A stretch of 32,000 bases of DNA. It comes from Candidatus Saccharimonadota bacterium (GTDB lineage: Bacteria; Patescibacteriota; Gracilibacteria; BD1-5; UBA6164). The notes beneath the pieces were generated by a model. It searched no databases. It had not been told where the DNA came from and saw only the letters and a program-made list of their open reading frames with translations. The DNA is taken from the NCBI GenBank assembly GCA_004563595.2, contig CP042461.1, forward strand, positions 1,230,001-1,262,000, written 5' to 3'. Of this stretch, positions 1 to 32,000 are shown one piece after another (the first letter of the stretch is position 1; each line of letters begins with the position of its first letter). The translations under genes and the position numbers were made by a program.

Positions 1-1425
1 CATCTATCAGTCATGTTATGTTGGTACTATGTGTTGTATTTCAGGTTGTTGTAAATGTATTCCCTATTCATGCGTATGTAGTATTTGAATTTATTCAATA
101 TTTACAGGTTGCATTTTCGTCTGTGTCTAATGTGAGATTCACATTTGTTGTTCCTGAGGCTTGTTCTCCACTTGGTGTTCCGTTCGAAAGTACTGGAGCT
201 GTTGTGTCTGGAGTTACGGCTACAGAAAAGTTTAATGTATAATCTGTTGTTGTTGCATTACTTGATCCATCTATACATCTTACATAATATGTATATGATG
301 TTGCATCTGCTAATCATGTTATGTTGGTTGTATGACTTGTATTTCAGGTTGTTGTAAAGGTATCTGTCATTGATGCATACGTTGTATTTACTGCTGTTGA
401 GTATTTACAGGTTGCATTTTCATCTGTATCTAATGTCAGGTTCACATTCGTTGTTCCTGAGGCTTGTTCTCCACTTGGAGTTCAGTTCGAAAGAATTGGT
501 GCCGTTGTGTCTGGAGTGTTCGCTACAGAAAAATTTAATGTGTAGTCTGTTGTGTTTTCATTACTTGATCAGTCGATACATCTTACATAATACGTATATG
601 ATGTTGCATCTGTGAGTCATGTTATGTTGGTTGTATGACTTGTATTTCATGTCGTTGCAAAGGTATTTATCATACTTGCATATGCTGTATTTGCACTTGT
701 TGAATATCTACAAGTAGAGTTCTCATCAGTATCTAATGTCAGGTTCACATTCGTTGTTCCTGATGCTTGTTCTCCACTTGGAGTTCCGTTCGAAAGAATT
801 GGAGCTGTGGTATCTGGAGTGTTCGCTACTGAGAAACTTAATGTGTAATTTGTTGTGTTTACGTTTGATACGGTATCGATACATCTTACATAATATGTAT
901 ATGATGTTGCATCTGTGAGTCATGTAATATTTGTAGTGTGTGTTGTATTCCCTGTTGTAGCAAAAGTGTTTATCATACTTGCATATGCTGTATTTGCACT
1001 TGTTGAATATCTACAAGTAGAGTTCTCATCAGTATCTAATGTCAGATTTACATTTGTTGTTCCTGATGTTTGTTCTCCACTAGGAGTTCCATTTGAAAGA
1101 ATCGGAGCTGTTGTATCTGGAGTGTTCGCTACTGAAAAATTGAGTGTGTAATCTATTGTTGTTTCATTCAAATACCCATCTATACATCTTACATAATATG
1201 TATATGAATTCCCTTCTGTTAATCATGTTACATTTGTAGAATGTGATGTATTTCACGTCGTAGTAAATGTATTTGTCATACTTGTGAATACTGTATTTGC
1301 AACGGTAGAATATTTACATGTTGCATTCTCATCTGTATCTAATGTGAGATTTACATTCGTTGTTCCTCAGGCTTGTTCTCCAGTTGGAGTTCCGTTTGAA
1401 AGTATAGCTGCTGTAGTATCTACTA
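1..1425 (-). repeat. Tandem 303-bp (101-codon) intragenic repeat, about 4.7 units in the window, continuing past the left edge
   Basis: Unit starts are at 1, 304, 607, 910 and ~1212 (motif catctg.gagtcatg...). A 77-nt block at 666-742 is identical to 969-1045, an offset of exactly 303. Confidence 0.9.
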
Positions 1426-4400
1426 CCGCATTTATCTTGTAGGCAAGGATTACTGGTCAAGCAGCATGATTCTCTCCATCTGCTCTGTTTAAATTCAAAT
1501 ACAATGTGTTTGATACATCATCATATGATCAACCAGCAATTAAGTTTTTTCTTGTTCCATTGAGTCTATATTCAAATGGAGTATTAAATTTTCCATATTG
1601 GTATGGTTTTACTTCGTATGATTGTTTTAATCCATTTTTTACATCTAAGAAATCATTTACATCCCATAACCATATATAGTTATACATATCAAGTGGATCA
1701 TAGGCACATGGTCATCAACATGCTTCTGTTGCACCTGATTGAGTAATCTTGTATCATCCTCCACTTTCATGCATTCATGACATTCAGATCGTTGCATAGG
1801 TTCTGGTTCATGGAATTATAAATCCATATTCTGCTCAAGAATCTTCCGTCCATAAATCATTATCTCCATTTGCATTATATAGATCCCAGTCTCAATATTC
1901 TGCCCACCCTGAAGGTGTCTTTGCTAATACATTACTTAAACCAAAATCTAATAATTTAGTAGTCGGTATAGTTACATTTGTATCGGTTGCATTCAAAAGA
2001 TCATCTGATTGAAATGCAAACGCACTTGGTCACATACTAGATCTCGAATTAATAGGTATTGAGCTTGATGATCATGATATATAATCTCATCATAATAGTG
2101 TTTGCCATTCTGTTGGTATCAATGATGCCCAACTTATTAAATGAGCCCTTCATGCAAGTGGAAATATTCCATCTATTACAGAATTTTTTAGATCTGATAG
2201 ATTTTTTACTACTGATGTTGTTCAAACATTAGTTCCACCTGCATCGTAATATGTATAGCTATGAAATAACAAACTATTGCCAATTACAGCCATTCATCAT
2301 AATTCGTCATGCGCTTCAGGATTTAATACTCTATTACGTACATAATCAAAGTCCTGTATTTGTGTTGCATTGTTTAGATTATTATAATCTGAATCAAGTG
2401 ATAACGCAGGAATACTAAATTCTCATAAGGCATCTTGATTTGTATGACTGGCTATGAAAACCGAATTTGAAGCAGGATTTACAGCAAATTTCCCTGAGGT
2501 ATAACTTAGGTCTGATACTCATGATGTTGAACCAAAAGTAAATCATCATACGTATTCAAAGTCTCCTATATGTGCAAGTGGATTTGTAGTAGGGTCTGAA
2601 CTTGGAATGCCAGATGCTACTGAAAAACTAATCGTATAATCAGAAGTATTTTCATTTGATGATCAGTCAATACATCTTACATAATATGTATATGATGTTC
2701 CATCTGTCAGTCCTCATATACTCACACTATGTGTTTGTCATCATGTTGTAACAAAGTTATTTACCATTGATCCGTATACTGTATTTGCAGTTGTTGAATA
2801 TTTACAAAATGCATTCTCATTGGTATTCAATGTTAAATTTACATTACTTATTCCTGATGAAAGTGCTCACATAGGTCATCCATTTGATATGATTGGAGCT
2901 GTTGTATCTGATGGTCATGTTGCCGTTGCTCAAGCATCAATTATTTCTATCTTATCTAAAATAAGCTCCTTATTATTCTCATAATTCACATTTGTATTTA
3001 CCAATGAATAATTCCCTGCACTTGCAGACGTAAACTCATATTCAATAGCTCCATACGAATTAGCTTCTACAGTTCATGTCGTCATAAAATACCATGTTCA
3101 AGCTCACCCAGAACCGAGCCTATCATTGTCATCAAAACTTATTCTTGGTGTAAATGTTATATCTCCATTCGTATCATTATACCAAGTTAATAAAACTCTA
3201 TCTCATTCTGCAAGTTCCATTGATGGTCATGATATTCATTGGTAGTTATAATCTTTATTCGAGGCTAATACATTCGTCATTCATTGATTATAATAGCCTG
3301 TATAAGTATCCTTAAAAACAGTATCCCAATTTGTAAAATTGAATATATCACTGGCTGCACTGTTTCAAAAATCTACCAGTAATTGACTACATGCATTGTT
3401 GCAAGCGGAGTCTGCACAATCAGTTTTTCCATTCCCATCATTATCTATACCATCATTACAGACTTCTGGTGGAACTACAAGTAAAGTAAGGTTCTTTGTT
3501 GTTAGAGCTACCGGTGAGTTTGAATCTGTAACGGTAATATCAATATTAAATATTCATAACTCTGTTGGAGCTCATGAAAGAAGACCTGCACTTGAGAGAG
3601 TTAATCATGCTGGAAGTGTTGATGTTGTTGATATACTACGTGGTGCCATTCATCATTTTGCTTCAATTTGTTTTGAGTATGGAGAGTTCAGTACAGCTGT
3701 TTGTAAAGAAGTTGTACTGAACTCCAAATCTGTAACAGCTGCATATATCGTATAATCTATTGTTTTCACTAAACTCATTCTTTGAATATCTCCAACTGAT
3801 GGAACATTTACCATGTCTAAATCATATGAATCTTGCGAAATAGCTGACCTATCTGAAATATCTGTTACGGCAAAATAAATCTTTTTTCCAAGTCAAAGTT
3901 CTGTTTTATGTTGATCTTGTAGTTCTAACGCAGCCCAAAGAACCTTGTATCATGGATTTGGTTTTATAATCTGTCCAAGAGCATTATTCTCTGCTCTATC
4001 AAAGTTAATCGTTTCTTTTGGAGTAAAAGCAGAGTTATAATTTGAATTATCTATCGGAGAAAATGAGTACTTTACTTCATATGTTGCATGACAATCTAAA
4101 CACTTGTATTTGTCCTCTAAACTAATATCAAAGATTTGCGTATCAGGATTATATCATACTCATAGATTTGTTACGGTTTCATCGTTTTCATAATCTACTT
4201 TGTATGCATCTATTTCATCTATGTAAAAATATGCAGGTGATGTGGTTTTTTGAGAACTATTTGATCTCAAAGCATATGACGCTATTCTATTAAAATAGTC
4301 TACTCCATCTCATGGTGCCTCATATCATCATACTCTGTATTGTCCATAGGGATCAGGATCTCATCCATTATTATGAGCTGGATGTCCATCATATACAATA

Positions 4401-5086
4401 TGGGTCCAAGATCACATGGGAATGTTCGTCACATGATGATAGTAATGTGCCGCTTTTCCGGTATCAATAAATGGGTACCATGAAAATGTCTCATCTGGTC
4501 TTGTATATGTTCCTGATAATTTCTGATCTTCTATATTTCTTGTTCCTTCTGGCATAAATACCCACAGACTCAGCCTATTGTTTCATTGAAGTTCTGGAAA
4601 TTTTGTTGTAACAGTTTGGTTTTTAAAATAAACTTGTAAATCTCATGGCTGTACTTGAGTTCCATATGGGTCATTTCCATCTGAAATATGTCCTTCAAAT
4701 TGTGATTTTGAGTGAACAGGTAATCCATCCCAATCAACTGAACCAAGGTTATCATATGCTCAACCAGTATAATGTACTTTTAATGAGCTTCAGCTAATAG
4801 ATAGATTTGGTTCCGCATCTATAAATCAATACCTATACCATCATTTATGGTTATTATTTTCTCCATTATAGTATGGAAATATTTGCCCCTGAGTACTCGA
4901 ACAAAGTTTCCCATAATTTTCTCAGTTATAGGCATTACATTCGTTAGATCATATATCTGAGTATGACCAATCACCAAACCCCTTAGTCAGGTCTCAATCT
5001 ATAAAATCAAAGCTTATTGCTCAAACACTTAAAAATGAACTAAAAAATATTAATATTCAAGCAAGTGTTCTTAATAGGGGTCTCAT
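1..5086 (-). CDS. Giant secreted cell-surface protein, partial (>=1695 aa; 3' end runs off the left edge of the window)
   Basis: The minus-strand frame is open from ATG (5086-5084) to position 2 with TGA=Gly; I met no TAA/TAG while reading it. The N-terminus MRPLLRTLAGILIFFSSFLSVGAISF looks like a signal peptide. It contains GLTLSSAGLLSGAPTELGIFNIDITVTDS (putative-Ig / cadherin-like) and CNDGIDNDGNGKTDCADSAC (~3400-3460; MopE-like Cys/Asp metal-binding motif). It carries six ~101-aa modules of the form DTTAPILSNGTPSGEQxSGTTNVNLTLDTDENSTCRYS...SYTYYVRC. Track ORF 920..1171(-) is an in-frame fragment of this gene. Confidence 0.8.
2610..2915 (-). repeat. Sixth, diverged copy of the same 101-aa module, separated from the array by a ~1.2-kb unique domain
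   Basis: It translates to DTTAPIISNGGPMGALSSGISNVNLTLNTNENAFCKYSTTANTVYGSMVNNFVTTGGQTHSVSIGGLTDGTSYTYYVRCIDG. The Cys...YYVRC framework matches the tandem units. Confidence 0.7.
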
Positions 5087-5184: not shown

Positions 5185-5892
5185 TTAATAATTAATTGTT
5201 AACTCTCTATCTTCTCAATTAAATCCTGCTTGTTCCAGGTTATATTTTAATGTTTTTGCCAAAGTGATTGGAAGAATTTTTTCATTTTTCACACAATCAG
5301 ATAAAAACTCTTCAATTTCAGATGAGTGTTTTTCTATATATATTCAAGCTGTTACTCCTCTATTAATTCACTTAAACATGGCCTTTACTTGTCATGATTC
5401 CCTAATAGGTGGTTGAAAAAATATTTTACTTCTCATTGCTTTATAATCTGATCCTTTCCACATGAGGTTTTCGATTTTTACTGAAACAGTAACAAGTGGT
5501 ACAGAAAAATCTGGAGCGAAACAGTTTATATCTTCTCTTAAGAATCTCAATTCTTCATAGTATTCCTCTAATATTTCTACTTCTTCTTTTAAGGTAACTC
5601 ATACAATATGAATTCTTTTTTTGTTTTTTATAGCATTTTCAAATAAACCTTTAAATATTTCAAGCTCATCTTCCGGAGAATACACATTCGAATACATTGC
5701 AGGCTTCTGGTCCGTCATTTTAAGTATTTCTATATTTTTTCTTTTCTCTAGTAAGTCAGATATAAAAACCACTTCAACATCAGAGTATTGCTTCTCTTTC
5801 CCTCCCCAATCTAAAATATCAATTGAAAATATATTATCAAAAAGGTCTGTTCATGGAATATTCACTATTCTATCTGGGTATACTTTTTTCAT
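5185..5892 (-). CDS. Hypothetical protein (235 aa)
   Basis: ATG at 5892 directly abuts the TAA (5893-5895) of the upstream rnhB-queH gene, which suggests an operon. The frame is open to TAA at 5185-5187 with TGA=Gly. It starts MKKVYPDRIVNIPGTDLFDN. I recognise no family. Confidence 0.55.
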
Positions 5893-7101
5893 TTATTTTT
5901 TCTTTTCTTTTAATTTATCTAAAAATTGTTGTTTTCCTCCTGGATACGTGTCTGAATATATGCATCCACAATAATTCTGTCTATATATATTATGTTTTTT
6001 TGTATATTCTACAGACCTTTCAAATCCCTTATTTTTTCTAAATGCTATTTTTAGAAACTCTAAACTTTCTTTTAAACTATGCTTATCTCATAACCTGAAC
6101 ATCTTTTCTAAATCTTTATGCGGAGATGTATTCAATGTTGAAGTCCAGTAAGTAATTCAAAGTTTTTTTGCTTCTTTGGCTGTTCTATCAAGTCTCATAT
6201 CATAACACTCTGTACACTTTTCTCATCTTTCTGGTGTTGCCTCTAATCATTGAATTTTTTTAAAAAAATTCTGAACATCATATTCTCATTCTATCCACTC
6301 TACTCATTCTATTTCACAGATTTTTTTTAATTCTCATAACCTCTTATCGTGTTCACGCTTCGGTTGAATATTTGGATCATACCAAAAACAAATAACTTCA
6401 TAATCTTTTTTTAAATCAACTATAGGAACAGTAGCATCAGGACCACAACATATATGGAGAAGTAATTTTGGCTTTGCTTCTAAAATAGCTTTTACTGGCT
6501 TGTATGAAGCTCTATGAATTCCAGTCACTTTTCATTTATCAGACAAGAATTCTCTATGTTTTTTTGTACCATATCATTTATGATTCTCTATTCAAAGATC
6601 AGGGTACAATGAAGCATATGTATTCATAAGTTGATCTCTAAACACTTTTGCTATAATAGACGCGGCTCAAATCTCTGTTATTTTTCCATCTCATCAAATA
6701 ATAAAAATCGGTTTTTTTGTAAGCTCATCGAATGCATAATTATCATTTCCATCAATCATTACAGTTGTAATTTCATCATTTGGTATTTTTCTCAAAAGTT
6801 CTACCAAAGCCCTTCTCATTGCTTCTTTATTCGCTTGTTTAATATTAATTTCATCAATAACGTAATTATCAACAACTCAAACTCAAAAATAAACTTTAGG
6901 ATTCTCTCCTCTACTTAATTCGATAAGCTGAGCATATAATTTTTCTCTTTTTTTCTGTGTTAATTTCTTAGAATCATTTATTTGATTTAAAAACTCCTTG
7001 CTTGGAGTATTTTCAGGATGAAAGCATAAAGCACAGGCAACTACGGCTCATAACCATGGTCATCTTCATGCTTCATCAATTCAAATTTTATATTTATTCA
7101 T
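5893..7101 (-). CDS. rnhB: RNase HII fused in frame to epoxyqueuosine reductase QueH (DUF208), 402 aa
   Basis: The N-terminal half is RNase HII: MNKYKIGIDEAGRGPWLGAVVACA...DSKKL...MIDGNDNY...IGGDGKITEIGAASIIAKVFRD...HKGYGTKKH...HRASYKPV. With no stop it continues into KLLLHICCGPDATV...FWYDPNIQP...CTECYDMRLDRTA...YRQNYCGCIYS, which is QueH. Track ORF 6334..6528(-) spans the junction in the same frame. Confidence 0.75.
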
Positions 7102-7175
7102 TTTATACTTTCAATATTATAATTTTGATTATAATAACTAAAATTAAAATTTAAACAAACAAATACGTGGAATAC

Positions 7176-8429
7176 AAAATCTTTTGATGTAAAGTAAATA
7201 AATACTATACCGATGAATGGCTCAATTCTGACTATCTTTCTGATAAAAAAGGTATTTTTATTGCATCCTGTGTAGTAACAGATAATGCAAAAAGAAAATG
7301 GGTGAAATTCATCAAAGATACTGGAAAAAACCTATCCGCATGAGAAAAAATGTATGTAAGTTGATGTGGAGCTTTTACAGAAGGAAAAGCTCAAACTGAC
7401 TTTTTTGAAGTCTATCCTAATCTTGCATACCTCAAAGACAGTATCGAGATTCTCGACGAAATACCTGATAAAAAACCGAAACCAAAATTAAACCTTGAAG
7501 AAGTGAAAAATAAGCTCAAAAATATCCCTCAGATCTATACAAAAAAATTCTTACTTATTCAGGGCTGATGTGATAGTTTTTGTACTTTTTGTCTTACAGT
7601 AAAAAAAAGATGAAGGCACTATTCTCGAAACCTAGATGATATTGTTGAAGATATTTTAGAATATGAATTACAAGGATGAAAAGAAGTAGTTCTTACTTGA
7701 GTTAACCTTACAGCTTGGGGACTTGATTCAACAAATGACATTTGAAAATCAAGATTTGCAGAGCTTCTCATAGCTATTTTAGATAGAACTGAAATTCCTA
7801 GACTTAGGATCAGCTCATTATGACCTGAATTTGTAACTGATGAAATATTAGAGGTCTGTAAAAATAAAAGAATTTACCCTCATTTCCACTATTCAGTTCA
7901 ATCATGATCAAGTAATACTCTCAAAGCAATGGCTCGTCATTACGATGGGAAATATATGAGAAAATTACTTGAAAAAACCAAAAACCTTCAAAGAGATGAT
8001 TGAATAAATGTAAGTATATGAGCTGATTTAATTGTAGGCTTTCCGGGAGAAACCGATGAAAACTTCAGAGAAACCTACAATCTTATTAAAGACTGACTTA
8101 TCACCAAAGTTCATGCATTTCCGTTTTCAGCTCATAACTTATGAGAAAGTGTACCTGCTGGAAAGTTTCCAAATCAAGTGGATGAAAAAATAAAAAAAGA
8201 AAGAATGTGGGAAATAATGAACATCTCAGATCAAATACGTGATGACTTTATAGATCAAAATATTTGAAAAACTTTAGAAGTTTTAATAGAGTCTGCTAAA
8301 ACTGATACAGACTGAAGAATAAAATGGAAATGATGGACTCAAAATTATATAGAAGCAGATCAAGATACATTTGAAATCTCTTCTTGAACTATAAAAAGAA
8401 ATGAAATAGTCGTTTGAAAATTAAAATAA
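7176..8429 (+). CDS. mtaB: Radical-SAM methylthiotransferase, MiaB/MtaB family (MtaB-like), 417 aa, GTG start
   Basis: N-terminus (M)EYKIFGCKVNKYYTDEW, then IASCVVTD and VSGCGAF, giving the three Cys of the UPF0004 domain. The radical-SAM motif is LLIQGGCDSFCTFC, with the Gly before the Cys encoded by TGA at 7566-7568. It also has SVQSGSSNTLKAMAR and LIVGFPGETDENF. A TAA at 7161 closes the frame upstream and there is no in-frame ATG before the GCKVN box. Confidence 0.75.
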
Positions 8430-8535: not shown

Positions 8536-8982
8536 ATGTTTTACATAATACTTATCCCCTGAATAATCCTTGATTTTATCACAAAAAATCTTGCAAATAC
8601 ATATTTACAAAATAAAATAAGTATTTTATGAGACTTCTTCTATTTGCAATATGCAGAAAATACATGAATTGCATTTTCCATTCAAATTCCTTCATTTTTT
8701 CTTAAAACACTCACTCTGACTTTGATTATTGCTATTTTTTATTATTATAAAACTGAAAAGAAAAAAATATCTCCTCAAAAAAAACAAAATTTACTTTTAG
8801 ATATTTCTTTTTGACTCATATTAGCAGGAGCAATATGAAATGCCATTTGAAGAATATTTCATTCATATGTTATTGATTTCATTTGAATACAATACTTCTC
8901 TATATTTAATATGGCTGACATATATATTAATCTTTGAGCATTATTATACATCTATTTGCTTATAAAAAATCGTAATTTATAA
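8536..8982 (+). CDS. lspA: Lipoprotein signal peptidase (signal peptidase II) homolog, 148 aa
   Basis: ILDFITKNL (the N-terminal Asp/Lys box), YLQYAENTGIAFS, AGAIGNAI[TGA]RIF and SIFNMADIYINLGA (the FNxAD box). See the finding on the TGA at 8848-8850. Confidence 0.75.
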
Positions 8983-8994: not shown

Positions 8995-9744
8995 ATGTGA
9001 TTCTGACCAAAAAAACTTTCTTTTTCAGATATACTTATAAATTCTATCTGAAGCCTTATTGCCTGAGCACTATGAAGTGTAATTATATTAATAATTACAT
9101 TTTCAATATGAAACATCATTAATATCCCTGCTGCATTCAATACAGCAAGTATATGAATTGAAACAAATGCTATTTTTCCACTCGTTCTCTCAGTTATCAC
9201 CCTGCTATGAACAACGACTACAATATTTCTCACATATTATATAGCTCACCTCACTAATAGTGATCGATATAGAAAGAATATTATTATCCTAGGGCAAATC
9301 GCTTTCTTTGCAGTTATGACATATTTATTTGTTACCCCTATTTACTTATATGCAGGACTTCAAAATTACGACTATATAATGTATGTCTTTCTTGCTCATA
9401 CACTCACCGTAACCTTCTGAACAAGTATTATACTTGAAACACTCAATAATTACCGCTACATTCTCCTTTGAATATATTGAAGCTTTGTTGGACTCTTTAT
9501 CAGTATAATTATAACTATTAGTATATTCTCTCTTTTTAGTGCATGAATAGCTAAATTAATCTCACTTATTATACTCCTCCCTATTATTAATTTTCTTATC
9601 ACTTTCTTTAAACAACTCTTTGAAATAATATATATGTATTATTTCAGAATGACCAATCAGGACCAGCTTTGAGATATTTTTTACCAAATTGAATTGGAAG
9701 AAAAAGAGATGTTACTAGAAGAGGAAGAAAAAAATAGTATATAA
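8995..9744 (+). CDS. Multi-pass membrane protein, hypothetical (249 aa) with an acidic C-terminal tail
   Basis: The frame is open from ATG 8995 to TAA 9742-9744 with TGA=Gly. It contains several long hydrophobic segments (for example GSLIAGALGSVIILIITFSIG and IIILGQIAFFAVMTYLFVTPIYLYAG). The tail is ELEEKEMLLEEEEKNSI. Confidence 0.55.
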
Positions 9745-9797
9745 AGAAAGCTTTAATTATAAACCCCCAATATATGTTAAATATAATAAGCCAAACA

Positions 9798-10307
9798 ATG
9801 GAGTTTTATACAAAGTATAAAAAGGTTCCATCATTAAGTGATATAAAAATTGAAAATTCTTCTCTATTAGAAGGTAAAACATCTCTATTTATAACTCTCT
9901 ATAAAAACTGAGAGATTAGATGATCAGCATGAAATATTAGAGAAATAACGAGCTCTACAGCAGAAGAACTTATCCAGAATACTATCCATGCAATATCAAA
10001 AGATCATCGTTTTCCTGAAATCAAAATTGATGATGTAAAAGATTTAAAAATTAGGCTCGATGTTATTACAAATAGAAGAGTTATCCAGGATAATGAATTA
10101 ACAAAAATTGATCCAGTTAAAAACTGAGTACTCGCGATAAAAAAAGATTACTCAAAACTTGCAGTTATTTTACCAAATATTCATCCAACACTCTTAACTT
10201 GAGATGATTTTGCTCCTATATTAAAAGAAAAGCTCTGAGAAAAATATTTTAAAGCAAATGAATATATTGTCTATGAAATACAAACAGAAGTATCAAGAGA
10301 TTTCTAA
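9798..10307 (+). CDS. AMMECR1 domain protein (169 aa)
   Basis: SLFITLYKNGEIRGSAGNI matches the AMMECR1 pattern FVTL..g.LRGCIG. It also has AISKDHRFPEIKIDDVKDLKIRLDVI and NGVLAIKKDYSKLAVILPN. Confidence 0.6.
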
Positions 10308-10366: not shown

Positions 10367-10963
10367 TTATTGAGTTCTAATTACCATTGGATTTGCAGGT
10401 GTAGTTGTACTACATGCAATACCTACCCCTACAGGAGTAACACATGTCATAGTAGAAACAGCAGCAGCTATTCATCCAGCTAAAACAACCACTGTAGGCT
10501 TTGGAATAGTATTATCAATACCAATTCATAATTCTAATCTATTATCATCGTCTCATCCATCTTTTGCAGCTTTTCAAGTTAAATTCCCTGATTGTTCAAA
10601 ATGAGTTGAAATTTCAAATTCTTGATTATTTATAGTATTTGAATCAGCTGATACATTGTATAAGTAATCAAAAACTGAATTTGCACTTCCTTGTTCTGTC
10701 TTTGGATCTTCTGGCAATTTAGGAACATATGTTGTTACTCATGAAAATGTTCCTCCTTTATCAGGATATTCTCCTGCGTCTTGATAGTATTGTTCTGTTC
10801 ATGATTTTAGAGCGTTTACATCTGTAAGTCTTGTACTATCTCTTGCTTTTTGAATTTGACTTGTATATACAGTAGTTGCCCCGGTAGCAAGAATACCTAT
10901 AATTGTGATTACTACCAATAACTCAATAAGAGTGAAGGCTTTTTTTATGCTTTGTAATTTCAT
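10367..10963 (-). CDS. Type IV pilin / pseudopilin with a prepilin N-terminal methylation motif (198 aa)
   Basis: MKLQSIKKAFTLIELLVVITIIGILATGATTVY is the classic class III signal peptide (G/A-FTLIELLVV). The C-terminus carries two Cys (TMTCVTPVGVGIACS). Confidence 0.8.
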
Positions 10964-11616: not shown

Positions 11617-12057
11617 ATGTTTAGATATGAACTTGCCATTAAACCAGAGTTTCACTTGAATTTTGATATTATTGATAAAATATTCTCAAATATTTCAAAG
11701 ATAATACCGAAAAAACAAGAAGGAACTTTAAATATTATATTCTCAAATAATAAAGAGATTCAAAAATTAAATCATACATATAGAAATATAAACAAAGCGA
11801 CAGATGTGTTAAGCTTTCACTATTTTGAAGATTTTCAAAACCTTAAAAGTAATGATATCGCATGAGAAATAGTCCTATCAGAAGAAAAGATTATTGATCA
11901 ATGACAAGAATACTGACTCTGAGAAGAAAAGGAGTTTTATAAGCTTTTAATTCACTCAACTCTTCATATATTATGATATGATCATGAGCAAGACGATGAT
12001 TATAAGATTATGCAAGAAAAAGAAGAACAAATATGGAATAAAGTATTTGAAAAATAA
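11617..12057 (+). CDS. ybeY: Endoribonuclease YbeY (rRNA maturation factor), 146 aa
   Basis: IQKLNHTYRNINKATDVLSF and LLIHSTLHILGYDHEQDDD (the H..LH.LGYDH zinc motif). It extends track ORF 11617..11865 through TGA codons. Confidence 0.85.
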
Positions 12058-12167: not shown

Positions 12168-12584
12168 ATGCAATACAAAATACCTGTTCAAATAGAGAAT
12201 GAGGATCCAATTATTTGACCTCTCAGCCTCAGACAACTTATCATTATTATGGTTGGATGATGAATAGCTTATTCGCTATTTAATTCACTAGCTCCAAGTA
12301 TATGAGTAGAAATTGCAGCAATTCCATCTATTTTTATAGTCTTAGTTGCTCTTATGATAGCTCTTTTTAAACATTCAGAAATGACATTTATTCCTTTTGC
12401 ACTTTCACTCACAAGGTTTCATACAAACTATAAAGAAAGAAGGTGGGTTAAATGAGTCGATAGCTTCCAACCAATAGATATATGATATATCACAAATATA
12501 GAAGGAAAAAAAGAAGAAATAATAGACTTCAAATCCAAAATGGATCAAATTAACCAACTCGAAGACAAACTTAGTAAAATTTAA
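12168..12584 (+). CDS. PrgI-family small membrane protein (T4SS-associated), 138 aa
   Basis: MQYKIPVQIENEDPIIGPLSLRQLIIIMVGGGIAYSLF matches, from memory, the PrgI-family N-terminus (y.vP..ie.eDki.gpLtlRQ). It has two TM segments followed by a charged tail. Confidence 0.6.
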
Positions 12585-12602
12585 TTTTTAAATGACCATT
12601 CA

Positions 12603-13316
12603 GTGGCTGTAAAAACAAAACAAAAAGATAACCCAGACACGTCCACCACAAGACATCTTCCCTTTTCTCAAATAAGAGAAAATATTGTGATTATGAAAGA
12701 CGATAGTGCCAGGTTAGTTCTCAAATGTAGTACGATAAATTTTTTATTAAAAAATACTGATGAACAAGATTCAATCATTATAAGTTTTCAAAGGTTCTTA
12801 AACTCCCTTGATTTCCCAATTCAAATACTTGTAAGGTCAAGAAAGCTTGATATTGATTCATATCTTGCTAAATTAAATGATAAAGCTATCAAACAAGAAA
12901 ATAGTTTATTACAAAACCAAACATATGAATATATAGAATATCTTCGCAAACTTATTGAGGTTGCTCAAATTATGAAAAAAGAATTCTACATCATAATCCC
13001 CTATGATGAAAATGAAAATAAAAGCGTAAAAGACGATTCTATAATGTGACCTTTAAAAAACTTTGTTGATAGTGTTTTTAAAAATTGAGTTGATGCTATA
13101 AAGATAAAAAGCCAAATAAGAAATTTCACAAAAATGAAGAAATGATTAGTCGGTAGATCAAATTCAATCAAAACATGACTTGAGAATATTGGAATACGCG
13201 CAAATACTATTGATAAAGCTGACCTTGTGAAATTTCTTACGGATTACTATAATCCGACTCTCAGTAACTTTGTTGCTATGAAACAAGATACTGATGATTA
13301 CAACCTACTTCCATAA
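12603..13316 (+). CDS. Stand-alone protein resembling the N-terminal (non-ATPase) domain of CPR/Firmicute VirB4/TraC-like T4SS ATPases (237 aa, GTG start)
   Basis: LPFSQIRENIVIMKDDSARLVLKCSTINFLLKNTDEQDSIIISFQRFLNSLDFPIQILVRSRKLDIDSYL...QIMKKEFYIIIPY...LVKFLTDYYNP. It ends at TAA 13314-13316 with no Walker A motif. It extends track ORF 12603..13049. Confidence 0.45.
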
Positions 13317-18889: not shown

Positions 18890-18965
18890 TGGTGCACGAG
18901 ACAGGGCTCGAACCTGTGACCTTCGCCTTAGAAGGGCGCTGCTCTTCCAACTGAGCTACTCGTGC
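18890..18965 (-). tRNA. tRNA-Arg (anticodon TCT), CCA encoded
   Basis: gcacgagtagctcagttggaagagcagcgcccTTCTAAggcgaaggtcacaggttcgagccctgtctcgtgcacca. The anticodon loop is cuUCUaa. There is one G-A mismatch at the base of the anticodon stem. Confidence 0.85.
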
Positions 18966-19008
18966 AAAAAAATTTACACTTGTCACAAAAAAAATTTGAT
19001 ATTAAAGT

Positions 19009-19123
19009 CTTGGCAGCTACTTACTCTCACACATCTACGAGATGCACTACCATCAGCACGAGTTGGCTTAACTTCTGTGTTCGGGATGGGAACAGGTGTA
19101 CCTCAACCGTTATAACTACCAAG
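19009..19123 (-). rRNA. rrf: 5S rRNA
   Basis: The reverse complement contains cctgttcccatcccgaacacagaagttaagcc. The terminal helix is cttggtag/ctgccaag. Confidence 0.9.
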
Positions 19124-19224
19124 AGCCTAATATCAAATTGTTTAATAATTGTTTATATATCTTGTTCTAATCTGAACAAATAAAGTTAGTTAATGTGATT
19201 ATAGAAATGAATAATCGTTAAGAA

Positions 19225-22162
<2,938 letters not shown>

Positions 22163-22227
22163 ACAACCAAAACTATTAATCATTTTAGTCTACTAATCAT
22201 TATTAACTAACTTTATTTATTCAGATT

Positions 22228-22240
22228 ATTTTAAAGAACA
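22228..22240 (-). promoter_or_regulatory. boxA-like antitermination element in the 16S-23S spacer
   Basis: The minus strand reads tgttctttaaaat, compared with the boxA consensus tgctctttaacaa. Confidence 0.5.
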
Positions 22241-22296
22241 AAATAAACAAAATATTAGAAGAAAAGTACTTGAAAAATTACTTTAAAGAAAAATAT

Positions 22297-23766
<1,470 letters not shown>

Positions 23767-23865
23767 TTTAACGTATTTGAGTATAACATTAATGTTACAT
23801 CTTGAAATTTTTTATCTTAGTTTTCCTATGTAAGATTTTTTTCGTTTCCTTCTAATATTCTGTTT

Positions 23866-23878
23866 ATTTTAAAGATCA
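23866..23878 (-). promoter_or_regulatory. boxA-like element in the 16S leader
   Basis: The minus strand reads tgatctttaaaat. The same core appears in the spacer copy. Confidence 0.45.
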
Positions 23879-23907
23879 ATTTTACTTCCTTTTATTTAAG
23901 TATCAGG

Positions 23908-23935
23908 ATTGTATAAAAATTTAGTTTAAAGTCAA
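23908..23935 (-). promoter_or_regulatory. rRNA promoter P3: TTGACT-N16-TACAAT
   Basis: On the plus strand, agtcaa is at 23930-23935 and attgta at 23908-23913. An A-rich stretch lies upstream on the minus strand. Confidence 0.6.
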
Positions 23936-24021
23936 AACTTTTTTTAACTTTAATTTAAAGTATTTTACATTTAGAATAAGTCTTTTATTCCGTACCATCT
24001 TTTATTTATAAAAGCAGGAGG

Positions 24022-24049
24022 ATTGTATGAGTTATTCATTTAAAGTCAA
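24022..24049 (-). promoter_or_regulatory. rRNA promoter P2: TTGACT-N16-TACAAT
   Basis: agtcaa is at 24044-24049 and attgta at 24022-24027. Confidence 0.6.
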
Positions 24050-24132
24050 AACTTTTTTTAACTTTTTTTAATGCATTTTACATTTAAATATTTTATTGCC
24101 CCGTTTACTTTTTATTTTATAAAAGCAGGAGG

Positions 24133-24160
24133 ATTCTATAAGATATTAATGTAAAGTCAA
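24133..24160 (-). promoter_or_regulatory. rRNA promoter P1: TTGACT-N16-TAGAAT
   Basis: agtcaa is at 24155-24160 and attcta at 24133-24138. Confidence 0.6.
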
Positions 24161-24201
24161 AACTTTTTTTAACTTTTTTTTATAATCCATATTTTATAAC
24201 A

Positions 24202-24277
24202 TGGTGGGCCTGGTTGGAATTGAACCAACGACCAATTGGTTATGAGCCAACTGCTCTAACCCCTGAGCTACAGGCCC
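24202..24277 (-). tRNA. tRNA with CAT anticodon; an elongator type that resembles tRNA-Ile2 (lysidine) more than Met; CCA encoded
   Basis: gggcctgtagctcaggggttagagcagttggCTCATAAccaattggtcgttggttcaattccaaccaggcccacca. A G1-C72 pair rules out an initiator. The body resembles the Ile family (gtagctcagg.ggttagagc...ggtcg.tggttcaa). Confidence 0.8.
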
Positions 24278-24295
24278 ATATTTCAGAAAGGATAA

Positions 24296-24386
24296 TGGCG
24301 GAAGGGATGGGATTCGAACCCACGGAACCTGCAATAGGTTCACTCCCTTAGCAGGGGAGCCCTTTCAACCGCTCAGGCACCCTTCC
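24296..24386 (-). tRNA. tRNA-Ser (anticodon GCT), long variable arm, CCA encoded
   Basis: ggaagggtgcctgagcggttgaaagggctcccCTGCTAAgggagtgaacctattgcaggttccgtgggttcgaatcccatcccttccgcca. Confidence 0.9.
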
Positions 24387-24414
24387 AGATTTCCAAGTTA
24401 CTTCTTAATTCAAA

Positions 24415-24504
24415 TGGCGGAGAGACAGGGATTCGAACCCTGGGAGCACAAGAGCACTCAACGGTTTTCAAGACCGTCGCCTTCGACCACTCAGCCATCT
24501 CTCC
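24415..24504 (-). tRNA. tRNA-Ser (anticodon TGA, reads UCA), long variable arm, CCA encoded
   Basis: ggagagatggctgagtggtcgaaggcgacggtCTTGAAAaccgttgagtgctcttgtgctcccagggttcgaatccctgtctctccgcca. Confidence 0.9.
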
Positions 24505-24535
24505 AATTTATATATACTCATTGCTATTTTAATAA

Positions 24536-24610
24536 TGGCTCCCCCGACTGGATTCGAACCAGTGACCAAATGATTAACAGTCATCTACTCTACCGCTGAG
24601 CTACGGAGGA
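24536..24610 (-). tRNA. tRNA-Asn (anticodon GTT), CCA encoded
   Basis: tcctccgtagctcagcggtagagtagatgaCTGTTAAtcatttggtcactggttcgaatccagtcgggggagcca. Confidence 0.88.
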
Positions 24611-24636
24611 ACATATACATTAATTTAGCGAGACAG

Positions 24637-24664
24637 ATTCTATGTTTTTTTAACTATAAGTCAA
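24637..24664 (-). promoter_or_regulatory. Promoter of the tRNA-rRNA operon: TTGACT-N16-TAGAAT
   Basis: agtcaa is at 24659-24664 and attcta at 24637-24642. The architecture matches the three rRNA promoters. Confidence 0.55.
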
Positions 24665-24732
24665 AGTTTTTTTAATACTTTTTTACATTATCCTTACATC
24701 AATAAACATAATGCCTATTGTAAGCGAAAAAT

Positions 24733-24763
24733 AAAAAGAGATCTTTAATCAGATCTCTTTTTT
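24733..24763 (-). terminator. Rho-independent terminator downstream of gyrB
   Basis: aaaaagagatct-ttaatc-agatctcttttt is a palindromic hairpin with A-run and T-run flanks. Confidence 0.75.
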
Positions 24764-24785
24764 AACATATCAATGTATAATTTTT

Positions 24786-26690
<1,905 letters not shown>

Positions 26691-26788
26691 TCACCATATA
26701 TTAAGTTTTAATTTGTCTTAGAATATAGATTTTTAGACTAAAATCAAGAAAAATGAATATTGAATCTAAAAAAAGCTTATTTTCATTC

Positions 26789-27421
26789 CTAAAGTATTCC
26801 ATTTTCACTAAAGCTAAAATAATCTCCTTTTGTAACTATTACATGATCTAGCAATTTAATACCTACTAACTCTGATACCTCTTTTAGCCTTTGAGTGACG
26901 ATTTTATCATTTTCACTTGGGTATGTGCTTCAAGATGGGTGATTATGAATAAGTACAATACTATTTGCCCTATCTTCAATTGCGGGAGAAAAAACTTCTC
27001 TTGGATGCACCAAACTCTGATTTAACAATCCTATTGTTATCACTTTTTGAGATATAAGTCTATTTGCTCAGTCAAGAGTGATACTTAATAAGTATTCTTG
27101 TTTTTTATTTCTATAATCTCGTACCAATCATAAAACATCATTTATTGACCCTACAATAATAGAATCTTTTATAAAGTATCTTTTTGCAAGTTCAAAAGCA
27201 CTTATTATTTGCATTGCTTTTACTGACCCAATGCCTTTTATATTCATTAAATCTTCTAATTCAATATTTTCTTGCTTCTTTTCTATCACTCTATTTACAA
27301 TCTTCGAAAGCTTAAATACATCTATTCACTTAATACCTGATCATAAAATAGTTGCAACTAATTCATATCATTCTAATTTTGCTGGTCAATACTGTAATAG
27401 CTTTTCTCTTGGCATCATCAT
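26789..27421 (-). CDS. radC: RadC-like JAB/MPN domain protein (210 aa)
   Basis: MMMPREKLLQYGPAKLEGYELVATILGSG...IKGIGSVKAMQIISAFEL (HhH region), then VHPREVFSPAI...SIVLIHNHPSGSTYPSENDKIVTQRL (JAMM motif). It ends at TAG 26789-26791. Any of the three consecutive ATGs could be the start. Confidence 0.85.
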
Positions 27422-27436
27422 TTTATATTTCAATTT

Positions 27437-28309
27437 TTATAACTCTAATTTTTCATTCGCTAATTTTACTATCAATGATTCGAGCTCACGAACTTTATTT
27501 TCAAGAAATTCGAGTTCATCCTTTTTGATCTTATAATGTTTCTTATAACGAGATGCAACATATGCTTTTCTTAACATCTCAAAATAAAATAGATCCTTTC
27601 ATATATGTAAATGAAACCATTCCGAGAATAATGGATGAAGAGTCTTTAATTTTGTATATAAAATGTCTAAGTCATGAGTTTTTGGCTTATATCAATTTTT
27701 CATTAATAAATATGAGGACATAAATCCTTCTGTAGCTTGATGTAAATAAAAAATAGCGTGTCTGTAACTTTTTCTCTTGAATGCGTTGTTGTAATCAATC
27801 AAAAATTCCTTTGCTCCATCAAAGTACCTATTGAAATCTTCTTTCTGAATTACTTCCTTCTCTATATAAGATATATGACGAGAAGATTGGAAACTACATT
27901 TATCAGTGTCATATAAAACAACCCCCTCCTTTAATATGTCTAGGTAAAAATAATTTAGCTCTTCTAATTTCCCATTAATATAACTTATATCCTCTACCAA
28001 TATATTTACATGTCAGCTCAACCACTTTTCATTTTTAATTTCAGATAATATTTTCCTAGACATATTCATATTCTTTTCCTGAGTAGGCTTTCTTGTAACA
28101 ATCAGTATTTCTATATCACTATTATATTCTAAAATAGTATCTCCCTCCTGTACCATATTTCTCTCTATAAAATCTCATCTTGCATATGCTCAAAATAAGA
28201 TAATCATCTCTATTGGGAGTTTATGCATGGAAACCTCTTTAATAATCTCCAAGATCTTATTAATTTCAGATTGCTTATATTCTGGTATATTTTTCATAGA
28301 AACTTTCAT
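27437..28309 (-). CDS. Fused nucleotidyltransferase (MNT/Pol-beta fold) - HEPN domain protein (290 aa)
   Basis: N-terminal half: MIILFGAYARGDF...EYNSDIEILIV (the GS-x-ARG and DxD/E nucleotidyltransferase motifs). C-terminal half: HAIFYLHQATEGFMSSYLLMKNGYKPKTHDLDILY...LRKAYVASRYKKHY (HEPN-like helices with a terminal R-Y box). Track ORF 27692..28000(-) is an in-frame fragment. The stop lies 16 nt upstream of the radC start. Confidence 0.7.
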
Positions 28310-28326
28310 GCTGATTTTAGTATTAA

Positions 28327-28398
28327 TATATACAGAATATATACAATATTATAAGTCTTGGACGGAAAGTCAATATAAAATATATACTTTTTATATAC
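28327..28398. promoter_or_regulatory. Four TATATAC boxes in two 11-bp-phased pairs within a divergent promoter region (candidate operator)
   Basis: tatatac occurs at 28327-28333, 28338-28344, 28381-28387 and 28392-28398. Confidence 0.3.
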
Positions 28399-28489
28399 AT
28401 AGATATTAATACCTTTATATAAGTAAATAAATATGGCTAAAATGACAAAACTCAATACACTGAAATAAACTATATTATTAAAAAAAAGG

Positions 28490-29290
28490 ATGGAAAAAAT
28501 AAAAAAGGTGTTAGAAAAAGTCTGATTAAGTCAAAATGAGATTAACGTATATTTAACGTCTCTCTCAATATGACAATCTACAGCTTCTATAATTTGACAA
28601 AAAATATGACTCAATAGATCCACGGCTAGATATACTTGCCAATCTCTTGTATCAAAAAGAATTATGAGCATGATACCCAAAAAAGACTATTATCTTTTTT
28701 CAGCTGAAGACCCAGAGAAACTTCTTAGTATACTGAACAAAGAATACTCTCTTATTGATAATAAAGTAAGGGATTTACAACAAATCATGTGAGATTTAAA
28801 ATGACTTATCAACCCACAGGCTAGTATCCCAAAAGTAAAATATTACCAAGGAGTGGATTGAGTAATTGAATTACTTGAAGATACCCTAGAAGAATGAAAA
28901 GAAATATATTGAGCTATAAAAATAGACAATAACATGAACCCTAAAATTAAAAAATACATAAAAGATACATATATACCTCTCAGGAAAAGCTCAAATTTTA
29001 ATTCATACTGACTATTCAATGATAATGATGAAACAAAAAGTTATAAGAAACTCGACAAAGAAATAAACAGGTTTTCAATGTTAGTACCAGAAGAGTTTTT
29101 TCCTTTTCCTGCCTCATTTCATATATACTGAAATAAAGTCTCTTTTTATTCTTTCTATGAAAATGAAATAACTTGAATTATTATTGAGAATCAACATATA
29201 CACGACACTCAACTTTCAATGTTTAAACTATGATGGGAGATGGCAAAACAATATTCCATAAATAATGAGTATAAAAATATTAATTTATAA
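28490..29290 (+). CDS. TrmB-family helix-turn-helix transcriptional regulator (266 aa)
   Basis: MEKIKKVLEKVGLSQNEINVYLTSLSIGQSTASIIGQKIGLNRSTARYTCQSLVSKRIM matches the TrmB N-terminal wHTH pattern (L..lGLs..Ea.vYl.LL..G..ta.eia...g+.rs.vY..l..L). aagga lies immediately 5' of the ATG. Confidence 0.65.
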
Positions 29291-30551
29291 TAGGCTCTAA
29301 TGCAATATAGTATTTTGTTTTACTGGAAAATATTTTCCTAATGCAATAACCCTTTTTTAAGTACTTATCGATAATACTTAAATCATTTTTTTCTAAAGTT
29401 ACAAATTTAACTTCATCGTTACCTTGTGATACTTGCTCTACTTCTCATGAAGGTAAGCAATACTGCATTAGTTGTTCTAAGGATATATCTTTAGTTATAT
29501 TCTGCATATTAGGGTCCAGAACTAACTCTAACATTTGCTCTGTAGTTGGAATTCATTGAACCTCTCAACCAATAGATACTCAAACATATCACATATTATT
29601 AATGTAAATTTCCATAGGCAAAGAACCAAGAACCGATAACAATTTAGCCTTTTTTCAATCAACCATATTTAATCAATATGCCTGCATTAAAGCAGCAAGT
29701 CAAAAACCAGACTGGTATTTTTCATCAATATAAATGGTCCATATATGCGGAACTCCATCATCACACTCTTCAACAAACAAAGTACTCATCAATTCATTTG
29801 AACGATCTTTCATAAACAAAAATTTTCATTGACTTAACATGAAGTTTGAAAATGTTGCTTTTAATACAACTTTTGATATATCACTTTTCCTTCTTATGTA
29901 AGACTCTGTAATCATAGATGATAATTTTTCACTCTCTTTATCTCAAAATAAATCTGGATACAAAAAATTCTCGTCATTTTTTATTTTTTCGAGACATGGA
30001 TCATGAATTATATCTCATCAATTTAATACAAAAAATTTAAGTCCATATATATTTTCGTTAAATTCATCCATACTCACTACTTCTGTTGTCTGATTTTGAA
30101 TAGATATTTGTTTTATCAAAAGTCATCCACCAACTACATCTGTTGAATATTTTTCACTAATCATTAATTGTTTTCAATCTTCAATGCATCTAAAAATTTC
30201 CGCTAATAATTGTTTTATTCTTCTCGTCACAATATTTGATGCTCTTAAAAAATCTCATCAATTGTTACTGTCATTTATTATTAAATTAATTAAATTATTT
30301 ATTGCGGCTATCCCCCCCTCATAACCATCATGACTTGATATTTCATTCATTATTGCTGGAACTTGATTACGGTAAAACTTCGAGTTTTTTAGATGTGGTA
30401 AAATATCGTTTCATAATACCTCTTTATTTCTTACTACAAGATTAATAGTAGTAGATAACTTATCAATGACAGCATTCACGTGAGAATGAACAAAACCTAG
30501 TCCATCTGAGATATCTTGACTTTTAAGTGATTCAATAGTTAACTCATTCAT
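29280..30551 (-). CDS. Hypothetical protein (423 aa) with a possible C-terminal GNAT-like acetyltransferase fold
   Basis: The frame is open from ATG 30551 to TAA 29280-29282 with TGA=Gly. IWTIYIDEKYQSGFGLAALMQAYGLNMVDGKKAKLLSVLGSLPMEIYINNMGYV resembles GNAT motif A (Q/R-x-x-G-x-G/A ... Y...GF). The N-terminal two thirds is unrecognised. The 3' end overlaps the trmB-like gene by 11 nt (convergent). Confidence 0.45.
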
Positions 30552-30716
30552 CTTAATATGCATAATAATGAAATATTAGATAAGTGATTCTAATGTAATT
30601 CTGTTAATAATCAACCTTTGAATATACCATAACTGGTGACTAACGATAGTTACCATCATATTTTACCTATTTTAAAGCAATAAATGTGGTATATAATTAA
30701 AGACTGGTAATTATCT

Positions 30717-30744
30717 TTGACTATAATCCATTTTTGTTTACTAT
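30717..30744 (+). promoter_or_regulatory. Candidate promoter TTGACT-N16-TACTAT facing the hairpin pair
   Basis: ttgact is at 30717-30722 and tactat at 30739-30744. The -35 hexamer and 16-nt spacer match the four rRNA/tRNA promoters. Confidence 0.35.
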
Positions 30745-30751
30745 ATATTTA

Positions 30752-30905
30752 ATATCAAAAAGAAAGTTTTTGGTGTTGAATTAAGTCCATTTATTTCACA
30801 AAAGGAGGATGAAGTAAATGGACTTAACCAATAAAGGAGCAAAAAGACAGTTGTACTTACCCTGAAGGAGGAACAGGGTAGATACAACTGTCTTTTTCGT
30901 TCTTA
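30752..30905 (+). ncRNA. Candidate ~150-nt sRNA: two long hairpins, each with AAGGAGGA in the loop, plus a third AAGGAG in the linker
   Basis: Hairpin 1: ttaagtccattta (30781-30793) / taaatggacttaa (30815-30827), with loop ...acaaaaggaggatgaag. Linker: ccaataaaggagc. Hairpin 2: aaaaagacagttgta (30841-30855) / tacaactgtcttttt (30883-30897), with inner taccctg-aaggaggaa-cagggta, followed by cgttcttattttttt. Confidence 0.35.
30841..30897. terminator. Bidirectional terminator hairpin (terminates prfA on the minus strand and the candidate sRNA on the plus strand)
   Basis: A 15-bp outer stem plus a 7-bp inner stem, bracketed by A5/T5. It lies 14 nt beyond the prfA stop codon. Confidence 0.7.
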
Positions 30906-30910
30906 TTTTT

Positions 30911-31990
30911 TTATACTTGACCTTTTCATGCAGATTCAAGCTTCGCTTGTTGATCAGCTACTGCACAAGCATCAATGATCGGAGCGAGTTTTCATAACAT
31001 TATATGAGGTATTCATGAGAAATTTTGTCAGATCCTATGATCTGTAACCCTATCTTGAGGGAAATTATAAGTTCTGATTTTTTCTGACCTATCTCATGAT
31101 CATACTTGAGACTGTCTTGCTTCTCAGAGTTCTTTTGCTCTTTGCTCTTCGGCTAAAGTGTATAATTTTGACCTCATAATAGCAAAAGCTTTATCTCTAT
31201 TTTTATGCTGACTTCTCCCATCTGAACATAAAACGATAATTCCAGTAGGAAGATGCTTTAAATGGACTGCAGAATCTGCCTTGTTTGCATGTTGTCATCC
31301 AGGACCTCATGATCTCGTAAACTTCATTTCAATTTCATCCATATTCAAAACTACATCAAGCTCATCTACTTCTGGCATAATTGCAACTGTAATTGCTGAA
31401 GTATGGACTCTTCATTTATTTTCTGTTTCTGGAATTCTTTGAACTCTATGTACCCCTGATTCATATTTAAACCTTGAATATGCTCATTCTCATTTAATTT
31501 CAAATACCATTTCTTTTACCCCTCACGCTTCACTGATATTTTGCTCAACTATTTCAATTTTATATCCTTCTCCTTCAGCAAAAATAATATATGCCCTCGA
31601 TAATTCTCATGCGAATAGTGCTGCTTCATCTCACCCTGTACCAGCCCTGAGCTCAACCATAATATTTTTTTCATCGTTTGGGTCTTTTGGTAACAATTCT
31701 AGCTTTAAACGCTCTTCCATTTCAGGGATTTGATCTTCAATTTCTTTGATTTCTTCTTTTAACATATCTTTCATTTCAGTATCTTTTTCAGAACTGAGCA
31801 TTTCTTTATTCTCTATTAATGATTCATTAGCATTTTTATATTCTTTATATAAATTTACAGCTCATTCAATTGCTTTTTTTCTTGTAGCAACCTCTCTTAT
31901 TTTTTTTTGATCTTTAAAAATATTAGGATCTCCTAATTTATTCTCCAACTCTTTATATTCAGCTACCAAATTATCTAAATTGAATTTCAT
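30911..31990 (-). CDS. prfA: Peptide chain release factor 1 (359 aa)
   Basis: [25 protein letters not shown]...[19 protein letters not shown]...[29 protein letters not shown] (the PxT tripeptide identifies RF1)...[26 protein letters not shown]...[28 protein letters not shown]. The second G of GGQ is encoded by TGA at 31295-31297. Confidence 0.93.
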
Positions 31991-32000
31991 TTACTTTTAT

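Follow-up and report, generated by a model that had tools for sequence, protein, structure and literature searches.

What does UGA encode in a genome whose genes are all interrupted by it? The question is raised by a stretch of 32,000 nucleotides from contig CP042461.1 (assembly GCA_004563595.2, positions 1,230,001 to 1,262,000 of the forward strand), which we refer to as the window and whose first letter is position 1 in all coordinates given below. It has a GC content of 31.7%. Its genes are fragmented under translation table 11, as was pointed out in an earlier note made from the letters alone, which had called the supplied list of ORFs misleading. We regard it as almost certain that the window belongs to the chromosome of the marine BD1-5 organism Candidatus Gracilibacteria bacterium 28_42_T64, a member of the Patescibacteria (candidate phyla radiation, CPR), that this organism uses genetic code 25 and that UGA is one of its ordinary glycine codons. 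The assignment itself is already known: it was made for the lineage in 2013, and the authors who described this genome in 2019 already applied code 25.

That TGA is a sense codon, as the earlier note had claimed, is apparent from the open reading frames (ORFs) of at least 100 amino acids. When TGA is treated as a stop, i.e. under the standard code, there are 18 of these, summing to 2,159 amino acids, with the longest being 154 amino acids. When it is treated as sense, the sum becomes 11,125 amino acids, or 13,141 if ORFs crossing the window ends are included, and the longest ORF has 742 amino acids inside the window and 1,706 where the window edge is crossed. In 100 sequences of matching composition simulated with a first-order Markov model, again with TGA as sense, the corresponding sum was 1,826 ± 435 amino acids (maximum 3,044), and the longest ORF had a mean of 160 amino acids (maximum 244). 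The observed content lies far above this composition-matched null, and, therefore, the rescue of ORFs is not a product of chance or a by-product of AT-richness. Freeing TAG instead of TGA gave 3,366 amino acids in ORFs of this size, and freeing TAA gave numerous ORFs, each of 323 amino acids or fewer.

With TGA as sense, the number of ORFs is 23, their lengths range from 123 to at least 1,694 codons, and they and the RNA genes occupy 88.7% of the window. All 23 ORFs carry in-frame TGA, from 4 to 77 each. Twenty-two end inside the window, 20 of them with TAA, two with TAG and none with TGA; the remaining ORF crosses the edge. The fragmentation of every gene under table 11 would also be expected if the standard code applied and the in-frame TGAs were sequencing or assembly errors, or if the genome were filled with pseudogenes; however, the 7,773 codons hold 318 in-frame TGAs (4.09%) as against no internal TAA or TAG, and the stops are TAA or TAG. 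Moreover, the TGA positions are identical, at 100% identity, in independent assemblies (JGI, Logan and NCBI); positions 14786-32000 (17,215 bp) have 100.000% DNA identity with a JGI metagenome contig of this organism. Across some 100 relatives, TGA is either kept or swapped with GGN, and essential genes such as gyrB and prfA would all have to be broken. Error or decay under the standard code is, thus, vanishingly improbable.

The codon usage of the ORFs is readily accommodated if TGA specifies Gly. GGN codons make up 2.79% of the total, and the addition of TGA brings Gly to 6.88%, an ordinary value; TGA then accounts for the majority (59%) of Gly codons, as suits an AT-rich genome in which TGA is favoured over GGN. 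The same addition to TGG (0.59%) would raise Trp to 4.68%.

The identity of the residue can be read from the columns of protein alignments, and most extensively from those of GyrB. The gyrB gene (24786-26690, minus strand; assigned with Pfam) encodes 634 amino acids and contains 26 TGA, 31 GGN and four TGG codons. With TGA masked, its product was aligned to 148 diverse representatives that are 47-61% identical to it. In 18 of the 26 TGA columns, Gly outnumbers every other residue; its mean frequency is 0.59 at TGA columns, 0.81 at GGN columns and 0.02 at all others, and the frequency of Trp at TGA columns is close to zero. When log-likelihoods are summed over the TGA columns, Gly reaches −22.6, the runner-up, Ser, −89.9, and Trp falls outside the best six residues. 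The GyrB motifs for which TGA-encoded Gly had been claimed read as described, namely (with x for TGA) [20 protein letters not shown], LPxKLSDC and ExQTKGKLx.

Closer relatives allow the codons themselves to be compared, by virtue of a flaw in the public record: 96 of the 120 GyrB entries nearest to the window's have been translated with code 4, such that W in these entries denotes TGA or TGG, and G denotes GGN only. Code 4, which many public pipelines have applied to this organism, is also a rival reading, according to which UGA would specify Trp, as it does in Mycoplasma and several insect endosymbionts. It shares with the Gly reading the premise that UGA is clearly sense, and code-4 translations of the window's own genes, with W at every TGA, are present in the public protein collection (P0002 and P0272); furthermore, a review states that early literature placed BD1-5 under UGA=Trp. 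Yet across the 96 code-4 relatives, the columns that hold TGA in the window contain W in 51% and G in 46% of cells, and those that hold GGN contain G in 76% and W in 22%, whereas those that hold TGG contain W in 99.7% and G in 0%. This free exchange indicates that TGA and GGN are synonymous, and that TGG stands apart as a conserved codon for Trp, in agreement with the earlier note's view that UGG remains Trp. Given also the near absence of Trp from the TGA columns of the diverse set, the Trp content that code 4 would imply, the lowering of every Pfam score by W (see below) and the proteomics of a BD1-5 relative (97 peptides against three in favour of Gly; PMC4032931), we consider code 4 to be extremely unlikely. 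More generally, code 4 was used for most of the Gracilibacteria translations in the large public protein collection, which thus have Trp in place of Gly at each UGA, and a gene is often represented there by two entries, one with G and the other with W.

Profile searches gave a consistent picture. In all 14 Pfam domain matches, the score was higher with TGA read as Gly than as Trp: for example, RNase_HII scored 106.7 versus 64.1 bits, Peptidase_A8 107.6 versus 81.9 bits, YbeY 114 versus 97.9 bits and AMMECR1 66.6 versus 43.4 bits, and the weak match to UPF0004 was lost altogether when TGA was read as Trp. Structural homologues from standard-code organisms in the PDB place many of the TGAs at fixed glycines. 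In release factor 1 (RF1; prfA, 30911-31990, minus strand, 359 amino acids), 10 of the 16 TGAs align with Gly of the Thermus protein and no TGA aligns with Trp; among the ten are the second Gly of the GGQ motif, which is encoded by GGA-TGA-CAA (TGA at 31295-31297, minus strand, context GPGxQ), and both glycines of GTGERSEK, with TGA at 31100-31102 and 31094-31096 (minus strand) lying within [18 protein letters not shown]. A radical-SAM methylthiotransferase of the MiaB/RimO family (7155-8429, plus strand, 19 TGAs; start codon uncertain) matches NCBIfam TIGR00089 with 254.8 bits (cutoff 251) and has MtaB as its best match (equivalog score 250.7 bits). Its TGA at 7566-7568 (plus strand) supplies the Gly that precedes the CxxxCxxC motif (context QGxCDSFCTFC), and, by alignment with MiaB in the PDB, a second fixed Gly, that of VQSGSS, is also encoded by TGA. 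In the signal peptidase II gene, lspA (8536-8982, plus strand, 148 amino acids, eight TGAs; NCBIfam lspA 83.4 bits, cutoff 74), the glycines of NTGAAF and GN are specified by TGA, the latter at 8836-8838 (plus strand, context GAIxNA). The endoribonuclease gene ybeY (11617-12057, plus strand, 146 amino acids, five TGAs; Pfam YbeY) has TGA for the Gly of HxxxHLxGYDH, which reads HLLGYDH in the PDB homologue. Lastly, in the epoxyqueuosine reductase QueH, three of seven TGAs align with Gly, and the other four occupy variable positions. All five TGA coordinates that the earlier note had singled out in RF1, the MtaB-like enzyme and LspA proved to be TGA in the frame and context it gave. Tabulating the residues opposite TGA in the gyrB and prfA alignments returned mostly Gly, with Trp nearly absent from GyrB and not seen in RF1. 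Distant homologues, close relatives, profile scores, solved structures and composition are five independent lines that favour Gly over Trp.

The source of the window can be stated precisely. Its GyrB is the same at all non-TGA residues as the NCBI entry for Candidatus Gracilibacteria bacterium 28_42_T64, which has G at 26 of 26 TGA positions, and a second public entry for the identical sequence has W at all 26; LspA is represented by a like pair, the 28_42_T64 entry with G at TGA and another with W. The identity of these proteins bears out the earlier note's suggestion of a Gracilibacteria/Absconditabacteria-type genome: its owner belongs to the Gracilibacteria (taxid 1862133; Patescibacteria group, phylum Candidatus Altimarinota). 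The published genome is a closed chromosome of 1.343 Mb with one ribosomal RNA (rRNA) set and 33 transfer RNA (tRNA) genes, and its genes were predicted under code 25 using Prodigal -g 25 (Sieber et al. 2019, PMC6851277). Thus, the window and the published 28_42_T64 genome agree in GyrB and LspA at all non-TGA residues and in the single rRNA operon, and no differences were noted. The reassignment of UGA to Gly was proposed in 2013 (Campbell et al. 2013; Rinke et al. 2013; both as cited in later work), and proteomics of another BD1-5 population confirmed it, with 97 peptides that fitted UGA=Gly alone as against three that fitted UGA=Trp alone (Hanke et al. 2014, PMC4032931).

How might such a code operate? 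In the mechanism we envisage, the reading of UGA would fall to a tRNA dedicated to this codon, which would have the anticodon UCA, would retain the identity elements of tRNA-Gly (G1:C72, C2:G71, G3:C70 and U73) and would be charged by glycyl-tRNA synthetase; release factor 2 (RF2), the competitor at UGA, would have been lost. Termination takes place at UAA and UAG only, both of which are recognised by RF1. The release factor encoded in the window is indeed RF1, as had been deduced from its codon-recognition tripeptide, P-E-T: it passes the NCBIfam cutoff for prfA (468.6 bits, cutoff 423) and fails that for prfB (268.8 bits, cutoff 370), it matches RF1 in the PDB with an E-value of 1.5e-95 and RF2 with 4.8e-57, and it possesses the GGQ motif. 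RF1 reads UAA and UAG, consistent with the TAA and TAG stops used in the window. For the 28_42_T64 genome as a whole, prfA is reported as present and prfB as absent (Sieber et al. 2019, mBio, PMC6851277).

A candidate for the decoding tRNA is seen in related organisms. We scanned the GTDB genome collection with a pattern that combines the above Gly acceptor identity, following the criteria of Shulgina and Eddy, with a UCA anticodon (82 matches), and a metagenome collection with a wider pattern and an encoded CCA end (86 matches). Thirty loci carry a conserved tRNA(UCA) of 79 nt (CCA included) with Gly acceptor identity (e.g. L014:5279-5357, and others on L006, L023, L051, L067, L072, L113 and L153). 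It scores 43.4 bits against RF00005 and is, therefore, a bona fide tRNA, with an enlarged D-loop that is devoid of the usual GG. All 30 loci have a GC content of 28-42% and a long-ORF content that is from 2.3 to more than 20 times greater when TGA is read as sense; tRNA-Gly(GCC) lies 6-68 nt downstream in 26 of the 30. The matches from the genome collection are labelled as Gracilibacteria in seven cases and as 'Candidatus Peribacteria' in eight, and the metagenome contigs are unlabelled. Further Gly-like tRNA(UCA) types adjoin tRNA-Gly(UCC) on other recoded contigs. Across the lineage, a Gly-type tRNA(UCA) is, thus, linked with the recoding. The contigs of the eight metagenome-assembled genomes (MAGs) that bear the Peribacteria label nonetheless look UGA-recoded. 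Separately, UCA tRNAs of 71-76 nt that fit the Gly-acceptor pattern were seen on apparently non-recoded contigs (long-ORF ratio of approximately 1.0 for TGA as sense versus stop), namely, L041 (Streptococcus sp. LQJ-218), L043 (a Thalassotalea MAG), L057 (a Patescibacteria MAG), L161 and L140; possibly, these are natural opal-suppressor tRNAs, or mutated or misassembled copies of tRNA-Gly(UCC).

Several observations weigh against UGA being a uniform Gly codon in this organism, or against the mechanism proposed for it. None of the six tRNA genes in the window, as detected by ARAGORN and Rfam, has a UCA anticodon, and none reads UGA. Likewise, ARAGORN found no tRNA(UCA) in a further 4.7 kb of this genome (contig L001), and neither of the two collection-wide scans returned a match from this genome or from its source metagenome, Ga0239576. 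The absence of RF2 is taken from the genome paper (PMC6851277) rather than from a search of our own. At the level of individual codons, eight of the 26 TGAs in GyrB are at variable columns that are not Gly in distant homologues, and six of the 16 in RF1 are at variable positions that are non-Gly in distant homologues; additionally, one TGA in lspA (8848-8850, plus strand, context GNAIxR) aligns with a catalytic Asp of Pseudomonas aeruginosa LspA (GNLYDR). Hence, the earlier note's statement that the TGAs fall on invariant glycines stands for most of them, but not for the eight GyrB codons or for the LspA codon at the catalytic acid site.

With regard to the tRNA, synteny proved to be of limited reach. 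The arrangement TyrRS / tRNA(UCA) / tRNA-Gly(GCC) / YmdB / Cmk is confined to one clade of about 40% GC and did not lead to this genome; the sole link between the tRNA(UCA) loci and the window was an AMMECR1 homologue. A neighbour resembling a type IV secretion system (T4SS) coupling protein is conserved in low-GC contigs, but a search with it did not return the orthologue of this genome, and, in the closest reachable relative, no tRNA lies within 10 kb of its homologue. The supplements of the genome paper (Sieber et al. 2019, PMC6851277) make no mention of tRNAs. The scans may have missed the tRNA(UCA) of this genome either through the pattern used or through the content of the collections; alternatively, having escaped two scans for canonical Gly-type tRNA(UCA), the decoder of UGA in this genome could be structurally atypical. 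The tRNA step is, as a consequence, one that we infer for this organism.

The LspA codon is the main point in favour of an ambiguous code, in which UGA would be mostly Gly, but at some sites would specify another residue or cause low-level termination. Among 57 relatives, the equivalent position (residue 105) is Glu in 47 and Asp in six, and the outgroups have Asp; TGA is present at this site only in this genome and in one relative that is 81% identical. The second catalytic Asp of the enzyme (in FNMAD) is retained. A change from GAA to TGA requires a single substitution, and, therefore, the simplest reading is a plain replacement of Glu by Gly, which would have occurred within the sublineage. 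From this site, there is a slight chance that UGA is not uniformly Gly, in that it might undergo site-specific alternative decoding; the slight chance extends to an LspA that operates with one catalytic Asp. In principle, as noted in the literature, an anticodon with U34 could also wobble onto UGG. As a description of the code at large, ambiguity is very unlikely: it draws on a single site, for which one substitution offers a simpler account, no gene ends in TGA, and the bulk statistics fit Gly alone.

Two other forms of recoding were considered and are not supported. Recoding of UGA to selenocysteine is at odds with a codon that makes up 4.09% of the total and is found in every gene; furthermore, Cys is among the top three residues at just one of the 26 GyrB TGA columns, where it occurs once in 148 sequences. 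In Absconditabacteria and some Gracilibacteria, CGA and CGG are predicted to have been reassigned to Trp, of which the window shows no sign. CGG is not used in the 7,773 codons, and CGA is used five times in the 23 ORFs (7626, 9265, 15285, 18150 and 27119); the one informative CGA, which is that of the gene for the MtaB-like enzyme, falls opposite a conserved Arg.

In its coding rule, the window does not differ from NCBI translation table 25 (Candidate Division SR1 and Gracilibacteria): UGA is sense and falls on Gly, UGG is Trp, and UAA and UAG are the stops. The setting is also the same, i.e. a low-GC member of the Patescibacteria with RF1, and a tRNA(UCA) with Gly identity in recoded contigs, some of which belong to MAGs labelled as Gracilibacteria. 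The code 4 systems (Mycoplasmatales/Entomoplasmatales, Hodgkinia, Nasuia, Zinderia and Stammera) share the capture of UGA, low GC content and, if the mechanism above holds, the loss of RF2 and reading by a UCA tRNA, but the amino acid is Trp there and Gly here; moreover, the decoding tRNA in recoded relatives has Gly identity and adjoins tRNA-Gly(GCC). The distinction has practical value for annotation: table 11 fragments the genes of the window and table 4 puts Trp in place of Gly, and flagging the recoding from the raw sequence prevents both kinds of error.

The remainder of the window is densely occupied. The rRNA operon lies on the minus strand at 19008-23772, with gathering-score matches in Rfam for 5S (19008-19123), 23S (19227-22161) and 16S rRNA (22296-23772), the last of these being within a few nucleotides of the position given in the earlier note (22297-23766). 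The tRNA genes, also on the minus strand and detected by both ARAGORN and Rfam, flank it: tRNA-Val(UAC) and tRNA-Arg(UCU) are downstream of the 5S rRNA (18809-18965), and tRNA-Asn(GUU), tRNA-Ser(UGA), tRNA-Ser(GCU) and tRNA-Met(CAU) are upstream of the 16S rRNA (24202-24610).

Among the protein-coding genes, the largest (3-5086, minus strand), which crosses the window start, encodes a giant protein (at least 1,694 amino acids, 77 TGAs) that is secreted or lies at the cell surface and has weak matches to fn3 and purple-acid-phosphatase-N-like domains. It has a signal-like segment at its N terminus, five tandem repeats of 101 amino acids at 2-1420 and a diverged repeat unit at 2606-2908. Of 11 repeat columns, five show TGA exchanged for GGA or GGG and three show it exchanged for TCA; both alternatives are one-step neighbours of TGA, and this comparison is weakly informative as to the meaning of the codon.

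QueH forms the C-terminal part of a 402-residue product with 19 TGAs (5893-7101, minus strand), the N-terminal part of which is RNase HII (Pfam, and NCBIfam for RNase HII). Pfam RNase_HII covers residues 11-207 and QueH residues 218-389, neither TAA nor TAG separates these domains, and the single ORF looks like a gene fusion. A 290-residue protein encoded at 27437-28309 (minus strand) combines a nucleotidyltransferase (Pol-beta-like) domain with a HEPN domain; as a rule, these occur in two different proteins that form a toxin-antitoxin-like pair. Next to it is a radC-like gene for a JAB-domain protein (26789-27421, minus strand, 210 amino acids, seven TGAs; Pfam RadC and UPF0758_N). The AMMECR1-domain protein is encoded at 9774-10307 (plus strand, 177 amino acids, six TGAs; Pfam AMMECR1).

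The other ORFs, 14 if the nucleotidyltransferase-HEPN gene is counted with them, are likewise intact only with TGA as sense. On the plus strand, these include a SBP_bac_5 ORF (14814-17018) and a TrmB-like ORF (28490-29290), together with ORFs at 8995-9744 and 17011-17922; on the minus strand, they are found at 5185-5892, 17931-18503 and 29280-30563. A gene resembling those of type IV pilins, with a methylation motif at the N terminus of its product (10367-10963, minus strand), also belongs to this group, as does a small cluster of genes for membrane proteins (12168-14570, plus strand) related to PrgI (12168-12584), T4SS pilin (13322-13693) and holin superfamily IV (14175-14570), with further ORFs at 12693-13316 and 13697-14158. 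The pilin-like gene and the cluster look like a partial T4SS or a pilus-like module with no large ATPase gene nearby.

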